Assembly (NCBI GenBank): GCA_964510585.1
Contig: CAZECW010000126.1
Location: 1-32,000, forward strand
Direction of reading: 5' to 3'
Source: an uncultured archaeon
Lineage (GTDB): Archaea; Asgardarchaeota; Jordiarchaeia; Jordiarchaeales; Jordiarchaeaceae
DNA: 32,000 nt
The notes beneath the pieces are model-generated. The model was given only the letters and a program-made list of their open reading frames with translations, was not told the DNA's origin and made no database searches. Shown piece by piece: positions 10,358 through 28,705 of the stretch; position 1 is the first letter of the stretch, and every line of letters starts with the position of its first letter. The position numbers and the translations under genes are program-made.

Positions 10358-10485
10358 TGCGGCTGCCGGGAATTTCGAAAAAGGGGGGCCCTCTTTTTTT
10401 CGAACCCGGGTTACTGGCTTGGGAGGCCAATGTCCTAGACCAGAATGTCCAATAGTTACCCATACTATTTCTGGACTACAGCCGC
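10358..10485 (-). tRNA. tRNA-Gly(CCC), introns at 15/16 (10445-10470) and 59/60 (10372-10398), CCA not encoded
   Basis: Acceptor GCGGCTG/CAGCCGC, anticodon arm TTGGC-CTCCCAA-GCCAG. BHB helices GTCC/GGAC and TTCG/CGAA. Spliced product (75 nt) matches the architecture of the Gly(TCC) gene in this window. Confidence 0.92.
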
Positions 10486-28154: not shown

Positions 28155-28230
28155 GGGCGAGTAGTCTAGCGGCTATGACACCGCCTTGACGTGGCGGAGG
28201 TCGCAGGTTCAAATCCTGCCTCGCCCACCA
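28155..28230 (+). tRNA. tRNA-Val(GAC), intronless, CCA encoded
   Basis: GGGCGAG/CTCGCCC, CCGCC-TTGACGT-GGCGG, GCAGG-TTCAAAT-CCTGC. Confidence 0.97.
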
Positions 28231-28252: not shown

Positions 28253-28260
28253 TTTAATAA
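28253..28260 (+). promoter_or_regulatory. TATA box for tRNA-Phe
   Basis: AAAAGA followed by TTTAATAA; predicted start about 28283-28285. Confidence 0.55.
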
Positions 28261-28311
28261 GTTGTGAAAAAAACTTGTTTTTGCCGTCGTCCAAATTCTC
28301 CCAGGATAGGT

Positions 28312-28472
28312 GCCGTCGTAACTATTCACAAAGAATAGCGACAAGCTTAGCCCGGGAGAGCGTCGGATGCTGCCAGAATCCCTGACAGAAGACGAAACTG
28401 AAGATCCGATTGTCGCTGGATGCTGCCAGAATCACTGACAGAAGGCGACTTCAAATCCGGCCGACGGCACCA
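28312..28472 (+). tRNA. tRNA-Phe(GAA), introns at 9/10 (28321-28344), 30/31 (28367-28396), 53/54 (28420-28449), CCA encoded
   Basis: Spliced: GCCGTCG TA GCTT AGCCCGGGA GAGC G TCGGA CTGAAGA TCCGA TTGTC GCTGG TTCAAAT CCGGC CGACGGC ACCA (77 nt). BHB helices GTCG/CGAC, CGTC/GACG, CGCT/GGCG. Confidence 0.92.
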
Positions 28473-28597: not shown

Positions 28598-28705
28598 TGG
28601 TGCGGCTGCCGGGAGTCTCGGATAAAGGCTGCTCTCCTTCCTCATTCGAACCCGGGTAACGAGCTTGGAAGGCTCGGGTCCTAAACCAGGCTAGACTACA
28701 GCCGC
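28598..28705 (-). tRNA. tRNA-Gly(TCC), 30-nt intron at 59/60 (28615-28644), CCA encoded
   Basis: GCGGCTG/CAGCCGC, CGAGC-CTTCCAA-GCTCG. BHB helix TTCG/CGAG with bulges AA|T and AC|T. Spliced length 78 nt. Confidence 0.93.

Follow-up and report, generated by a model that had tools for sequence, protein, structure and literature searches.

Heavily interrupted tRNA genes are an established trait of Asgard archaea related to the one studied here. In one Freyarchaeia and two Atabeyarchaeia genomes, 92–95% of the tRNA genes were reported to carry introns, which are often non-canonical, and more than half of the genes contain more than one (Valentin-Alvarado et al. 2024, PMC11291895). A census from 2026 counted 2.2 introns per gene and up to five in one, stated that tRNAscan-SE misses 30% of the introns, and found little intron copying, with families counted only across isotypes and at an identity of at least 80% (Goswami et al. 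2026 preprint, 10.64898/2026.10.13.758758). Because this census was built on tRNAscan-SE calls and cross-isotype families, it is blind to a gene that is missed as a whole and to twin introns within a gene. Positions 30/31, 53/54 and 59/60 are standard non-canonical intron sites, and an intron at 3/4 in the Thermoproteales is the extreme case (PMC4090602). Such genes are already published, and the tRNA-Phe(GAA) gene described here belongs to this known kind; new are the lack of a Phe gene in the published table, the twin introns 2 and 3 of the gene, and an intron shared with its tRNA-Val neighbour.

The gene is located in a stretch of 32,000 nt (the window) from the draft genome of an uncultured archaeon, which comprises 3.78 Mb in 217 contigs at 96% completeness and 41.7% G+C (G000). 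A sequence-only reading of the window had proposed a tRNA-Phe(GAA) gene at positions 28312–28472 of the plus strand, interrupted by three introns at tRNA positions 9/10, 30/31 and 53/54 that make up 84 of its 161 nt. Splitting the sequence and joining the exons confirmed these coordinates, with introns of 24, 30 and 30 nt adding up to the proposed count and separating four exons of 9, 22, 23 and 23 nt, as follows:

28312–28320, plus strand: exon 1, tRNA positions 1–9 (from exon joining and the scan described below; identical in 6/6 orthologs)
28321–28344, plus strand: intron 1, 24 nt, at 9/10 (24–27 nt in all six orthologs)
28345–28366, plus strand: exon 2, positions 10–30 with 17a (from exon joining and the ortholog alignment)
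28367–28396, plus strand: intron 2, 30 nt, at 30/31, twin of intron 3 (27/30 nt identical)
28397–28419, plus strand: exon 3, positions 31–53, with the anticodon GAA at 28400–28402 (from exon joining)
28420–28449, plus strand: intron 3, 30 nt, at 53/54 (from its helix and bulges and the ortholog alignment)
28450–28472, plus strand: exon 4, positions 54–73 and an encoded CCA at 28470–28472 (from exon joining)

The 4-bp helix and the 3-nt bulges described in the same reading were found in all three introns. The central helix is perfect in 3/3 cases and pairs exon nucleotides −6 to −3 with intron nucleotides n−5 to n−2 (GTCG/CGAC, CGTC/GACG and CGCT/GGCG for introns 1, 2 and 3, the third including one G-U pair), and both strands of every motif carry a 3-nt bulge, the predicted cut following the second bulge nucleotide. 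Runs of A at the ends of introns 1 and 2 let the boundary slide by one base with the product unchanged; the sites were set at 9/10 and 30/31 because the bulge geometry fixes them. The core of a bulge-helix-bulge intron is therefore present each time, namely a 4-bp helix, two opposed 3-nt bulges and exons joining into a tRNA. The outer and inner flanking helices are relaxed: in intron 1, where G4–G7 are paired with CGAC, the inner helix is a 6-bp hairpin and an adjacent outer helix is missing, intron 2 combines an outer helix of 2 bp with an inner one that is interrupted, and in intron 3 both are offset by a mismatch and the inner one is again interrupted. The sequence-only reading had also called an intron at 9/10 unusually close to the acceptor stem, which was overstated: position 9/10 is not exceptional, because the 3/4 site of the Thermoproteales is known and the intron of tRNA-Thr(CGT) in the published table starts after nucleotide 8 (PMC11291895).

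The joined exons form a sequence of 77 nt including the encoded CCA, which ARAGORN calls as tRNA-Phe(GAA) and whose minimum-energy fold is a cloverleaf, both in agreement with the normal spliced product that had been predicted. The ARAGORN drawing and the fold show stems of 7/4/5/5 bp together with U8, A14, G18-G19, U33 and a T-loop starting with TTCRA. The spliced sequence further carries the anticodon G34-A35-A36 with G37, the discriminator base A73 and G20, which are the Phe identity elements known from yeast tRNA-Phe. The tRNA-Phe(GAA) gene at 28312–28472 is real.

Neither ARAGORN nor the Rfam model RF00005 gave a call on the unspliced 161-nt gene; three other tRNAs in the window were found by both. 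For the whole genome, ARAGORN with its intron option reported only 9 tRNAs, several of them mis-called, and the Rfam model only 7, so most tRNA genes in this genome must be hidden from these programs. Two 'Phe(aaa)' calls of ARAGORN were rejected as other tRNAs forced into the canonical-intron model. A BLAST search of the mature tRNA-Phe against the genome found no second exon chain. In addition, we used a homology-free scan that starts from a list of all bulge-helix-bulge candidates, which number about 1.4 million on each strand. From each TGAAG, either contiguous or made by a candidate splice, it extends in both directions and keeps a solution only if the anticodon, T, D and acceptor stems close, with a maximum of five introns. 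This intron-aware scan yielded no other ARAGORN-valid Phe(GAA) on either strand of the 3.78-Mb genome at up to five introns; solutions with 6–12 'introns' in AT-rich DNA were discarded as artefacts, which ARAGORN rejects. As to whether this is the only Phe tRNA gene, a question raised by the earlier reading, neither BLAST nor the structure-based scan revealed another one. The locus is the only Phe gene detected, and because the genome is a 96%-complete draft, a second copy is possible on unassembled DNA. Two glycine tRNA genes of the window that are missed by ARAGORN and Rfam also surfaced in the scan, and their spliced forms were validated by ARAGORN: Gly(TCC) at 28601–28705 on the minus strand, with one intron, and Gly(CCC) at 10358–10485 on the minus strand, with two.

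It had further been suggested that such a gene could easily be missed by annotation and that the genome would then look Phe-deficient, and this has indeed happened in a sister genome. The same-genus genome G006 is the published complete Freyarchaeia genome, with matching coordinates of tRNA-Val(GAC) at 1547486–1547561 and tRNA-Gly(TCC) at 1548153–1548047 in the published curated table (PMC11291895). Between these two genes, at G006:C1:1547648–1547842, we found a tRNA-Phe ortholog with four introns, which is absent from the table. None of the 38 tRNA genes listed for this complete genome is specific for Phe, Glu, His or Cys (Supplementary Data 4, PMC11291895), and because these four specificities are missing, it is likely that several more tRNA genes are wholly hidden in it. 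In Asgard genomes of this lineage, whole tRNA genes are thus lost from standard and curated annotation, beyond the loss of single introns. Before missing tRNAs, recoding or a given codon capacity are claimed for these closest prokaryotic relatives of eukaryotes, tRNA genes therefore have to be sought by intron-aware methods.

Orthologs of the gene are present in four same-genus genomes and on one 264-kb metagenome contig, directly downstream of tRNA-Val(GAC). The introns at 9/10, 30/31 and 53/54 are kept in 5/5 orthologs, and a fourth intron of 32 nt with a perfect TTCA/TGAA helix is found at 59/60 in G006 and in the metagenome contig. Across the six orthologs, the window's gene included, 73 of the 77 exon columns are invariant, and two of the four variable ones together form pair 27:43 of the anticodon stem, where U:A is replaced by C:G. 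The intron-2 partner of nucleotide 27 shifts in step (A, G, G), giving the pairs U:A, U.G and C:G. In the introns, orthologs differ in as many as 10 of 30 nt, and the 4-bp helix and both 3-nt bulges are intact in 20/20 intron copies. Near-invariant exons together with maintained splice helices are the pattern that would be expected of a working gene with spliceable introns. RNAalifold recorded almost no covariation across the six orthologs, a support that is thin because most structural pairs are invariant.

More distant relatives were compared as well. In Atabeyarchaeia, tRNA-Phe is interrupted at 22/23, 30/31 and 53/54, and a 53/54 intron of tRNA-Phe also occurs in other Asgard families. In the sister family (G001–G005), BLAST did not find a tRNA-Phe, the sole match being the T-arm of the L006 tRNA, and pattern matches for tRNA-Phe were no commoner there than those of a reversed-pattern control. 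The matching locus itself, L006:1398–1526 in G005, is a tRNA gene of 129 nt in which a 17-nt intron lies at 53/54, accompanied by other inserts. A scan of metagenome contigs for the doubly spliced junction revealed no spliced form of the gene.

Introns 2 and 3, which lie 23 nt apart, are identical in 27/30 nt in the window and in 29/30 nt in two orthologs. Within five genomes, they differ from each other at 3, 1, 1, 6 and 5 positions, compared to 1 to 10 differences between orthologous copies. In an alignment of both introns from the window, L002–L005 and L049, the copies cluster by genome in five columns and by position in two. This points to a repeated homogenisation, by which the two introns would have changed together within each genome. 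In Atabeyarchaeia tRNA-Phe, the introns at 30/31 and 53/54 are unrelated to each other. The adjacent tRNA-Val(GAC) gene contains a T-loop insert of 32–33 nt in four relatives, which is absent from the genome studied here and from G006:

L002:1424–1532, minus strand: tRNA-Val(GAC) with insert
L003:1376–1483: tRNA-Val(GAC) with insert
L004:1743–1850, minus strand: tRNA-Val(GAC) with insert
L049:5916–6023, minus strand: tRNA-Val(GAC) with insert
Window 28155–28230: tRNA-Val(GAC) without insert

The splice helix of the Val insert has only 3/4 pairs. Comparing the 59/60 introns of Phe and Val, 20–25 of 32–33 nt match, and 4 of 5000 shuffles were as good. The common change of introns 2 and 3 and the independent presence or absence of an intron of about 32 nt in the T-loops of the adjacent Val(GAC) and Phe(GAA) genes within one genus suggest that introns have been copied. 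We tentatively propose, at somewhat less than an even chance and from comparisons that rest on six related sequences, that Asgard tRNA introns spread and stay alike by short-range copying between nearby splice sites, for which ectopic gene conversion or re-insertion could be the route. If true, this would be a concrete way for tRNA introns to arrive that went unseen in the 2026 census, because only cross-isotype families of at least 80% identity were counted there. The Phe gene and its Val neighbour provide a small and clean natural series on the gain, copying and loss of tRNA-type introns, reaching from three to four introns and including twin introns and an intron shared with the adjacent gene.

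Upstream of exon 1, two further features were assigned:

28253–28260, plus strand: TATA-like box TTTAATAA, read from the sequence, 23 nt upstream of the leader copy of the acceptor strand
28283–28311, plus strand: leader of 29 nt (from alignment and folds)

The TTTAATAA box and its A-rich flank are invariant in the alignment of the five genus-level orthologs, and we infer that the box is the promoter element of the Phe gene itself. The first 7 nt of the leader (28283–28289) repeat the 5' strand of the acceptor stem and read GCCGTCG invariantly in six orthologs, and its nucleotides 28296–28311 are partly complementary to the D-arm exon. By eye, the leader resembles a degenerate 29-nt tandem duplicate of exon 1 and the 5' part of intron 1, with about 19/29 nt identical.

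Folding of the precursor with the leader gave −70.4 kcal/mol (z = −4.9; 0/200 shuffles were as stable), compared to −49.2 kcal/mol (z = −2.2) without it. In the minimum-energy fold including the leader, the leader copy pairs with the 3' acceptor strand, UCUCCC of the leader with GGGAGA of exon 2, and the true G4–G7 with CGAC of intron 1; the consensus fold of the six orthologs repeats all of these pairings. Because the intron-1 helix uses G4–G7, it is incompatible with a closed acceptor stem, and the helices of introns 2 and 3 occupy tRNA nucleotides 25–28 and 48–51. The three splice motifs do not overlap and are therefore able to form together. The intron-2 motif is absent from the minimum-energy fold of the precursor, and a fold constrained to contain all three motifs lies 9 kcal/mol above the minimum when the leader is included and 12 kcal/mol above it when the leader is left out. 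Judging from these folds, the leader probably acts as a stand-in partner for the 3' acceptor strand during splicing.

Splicing of such a precursor needs an endonuclease and a ligase, and genes for both are present in the genome. Two EndA paralogs were detected:

19612–20208 of the window, plus strand: EndA paralog of 198 aa, with His replaced by Thr (Pfam PF01974 and PF02778; alignment to 1a79)
C157:27039–27287: second EndA paralog, which keeps Tyr and His

Compared to EndA of M. jannaschii (1a79), the window paralog has kept Tyr and Arg-Lys and shows Thr at the position of the catalytic His, so it is probably a structural subunit of the splicing endonuclease. The closest similarity of the C157 paralog is to the catalytic subunit of the heterotetrameric enzyme from Aeropyrum pernix. 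The presence of both would fit a two-subunit splicing endonuclease, a type reported to accept relaxed, non-canonical sites (PMC4090602). An RtcB ligase gene is located at G000:C58:3702–5036 (L052) and gave a full-length Pfam match with 578 bits. It contains one in-frame TGA, which may encode selenocysteine or else reflect a small intron or a break.

Overall, we regard it as very probable that the locus is the single functional tRNA-Phe(GAA) gene of this Freyarchaeia-group Asgard archaeon and that its product is spliced from a three-intron precursor. The gene would be transcribed from its own promoter into a precursor of about 190 nt with the 29-nt leader. The archaeal splicing endonuclease, in which a catalytic and a His-less EndA paralog are probably combined in a heterotetramer, would cut both bulges of each of the three motifs, RtcB would join the exons, and RNase P would remove the leader, presumably in this order. 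The splice helices would borrow exon bases of the future acceptor stem, the D/anticodon junction and the T stem, so that the precursor would have to keep a non-cloverleaf fold until it is spliced; meanwhile, the 3' strand is probably held by the acceptor-strand copy in the leader.

The same locus might be read as a decaying pseudogene, a tRNA-Phe gene swamped by insertions that makes no working tRNA. Inserts indeed account for 84 of the 161 nt, the locus is rejected by the standard finders, and no spliced form turned up in the metagenome contigs. However, it is the sole Phe(GAA) candidate in a 96%-complete genome, its exons are nearly invariant while the introns drift, compensating changes keep the splice helices, the promoter box is conserved, and a multi-intron architecture is the norm in the lineage, which makes a pseudogene extremely unlikely. 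That short motifs came together by chance in non-coding DNA may be considered effectively refuted and has a negligible probability: 4-bp helices with bulges are common, as the approximately 1.4 million candidate motifs per strand show, but a valid Phe was obtained at one locus only in 7.6 Mb of searched strand, this locus is conserved in five other genomes or contigs, and the helix and bulges persist in 20/20 intron copies.

A further reading, which we reject, concerns the first exon. The leader copy at 28283–28291 might serve as an alternative exon 1: removal of a bulge-helix-bulge intron of 53 nt (28292–28344) would connect it to exon 2 and result in a second Phe tRNA with C9. The intron-aware scan does give this form as an ARAGORN-valid Phe, and the leader resembles exon 1 and intron 1 as a degenerate 29-nt tandem duplication would. 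Against it, the copy reads GCCGTCGC in three orthologs, which would place a C at the universally conserved U8; the same three orthologs lack 5 nt of the would-be intron, and the scan gives no such solution there. Because the invariance is moreover limited to the 7–8 nt that match the acceptor strand, a use of the copy as an exon is very unlikely. We therefore retain the reading of a three-intron gene beginning at 28312, in which the copy would be part of the leader.

Among the systems known so far, the tRNA genes of the Freyarchaeia and Atabeyarchaeia (PMC11291895; 10.64898/2026.10.13.758758) are closest to the gene described here, as they are from the same lineage and have the same multiple non-canonical introns, with up to five per gene. 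Three introns are likewise found in the tRNA-Phe of the Atabeyarchaeia, and two of these occupy the shared sites 30/31 and 53/54. Unlike the published Freyarchaeia genes, the Phe gene is absent from their table. According to the account given in PMC4090602 of Sugahara 2008 and Fujishima 2010, the Thermoproteales likewise contain up to three bulge-helix-bulge introns per gene, use the sites 30/31, 53/54 and 59/60, carry near-identical introns at different sites, and have a broad-specificity two-subunit endonuclease. Near-identical introns at different positions or in different genes, by which copied families are recognized in the Thermoproteales, were also found here, in introns 2 and 3 and in the 59/60 introns of Phe and Val. 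The Thermoproteales belong to the Thermoproteota, whereas the gene described here is from an Asgard archaeon, and their intron copies are, by the same account, scattered across the genome, whereas those observed here lie within one gene or in adjacent genes and seem to have been homogenised repeatedly. Finally, the canonical 37/38 intron with a strict hBHBh' motif (Marck and Grosjean 2003, as cited in PMC11291895 and PMC4090602) has the same core of a 4-bp helix, two 3-nt bulges and symmetric cuts; in contrast to it, the tRNA-Phe gene has no intron at 37/38, all three of its splice helices draw on nucleotides of the mature stems, and its flanking helices are relaxed.
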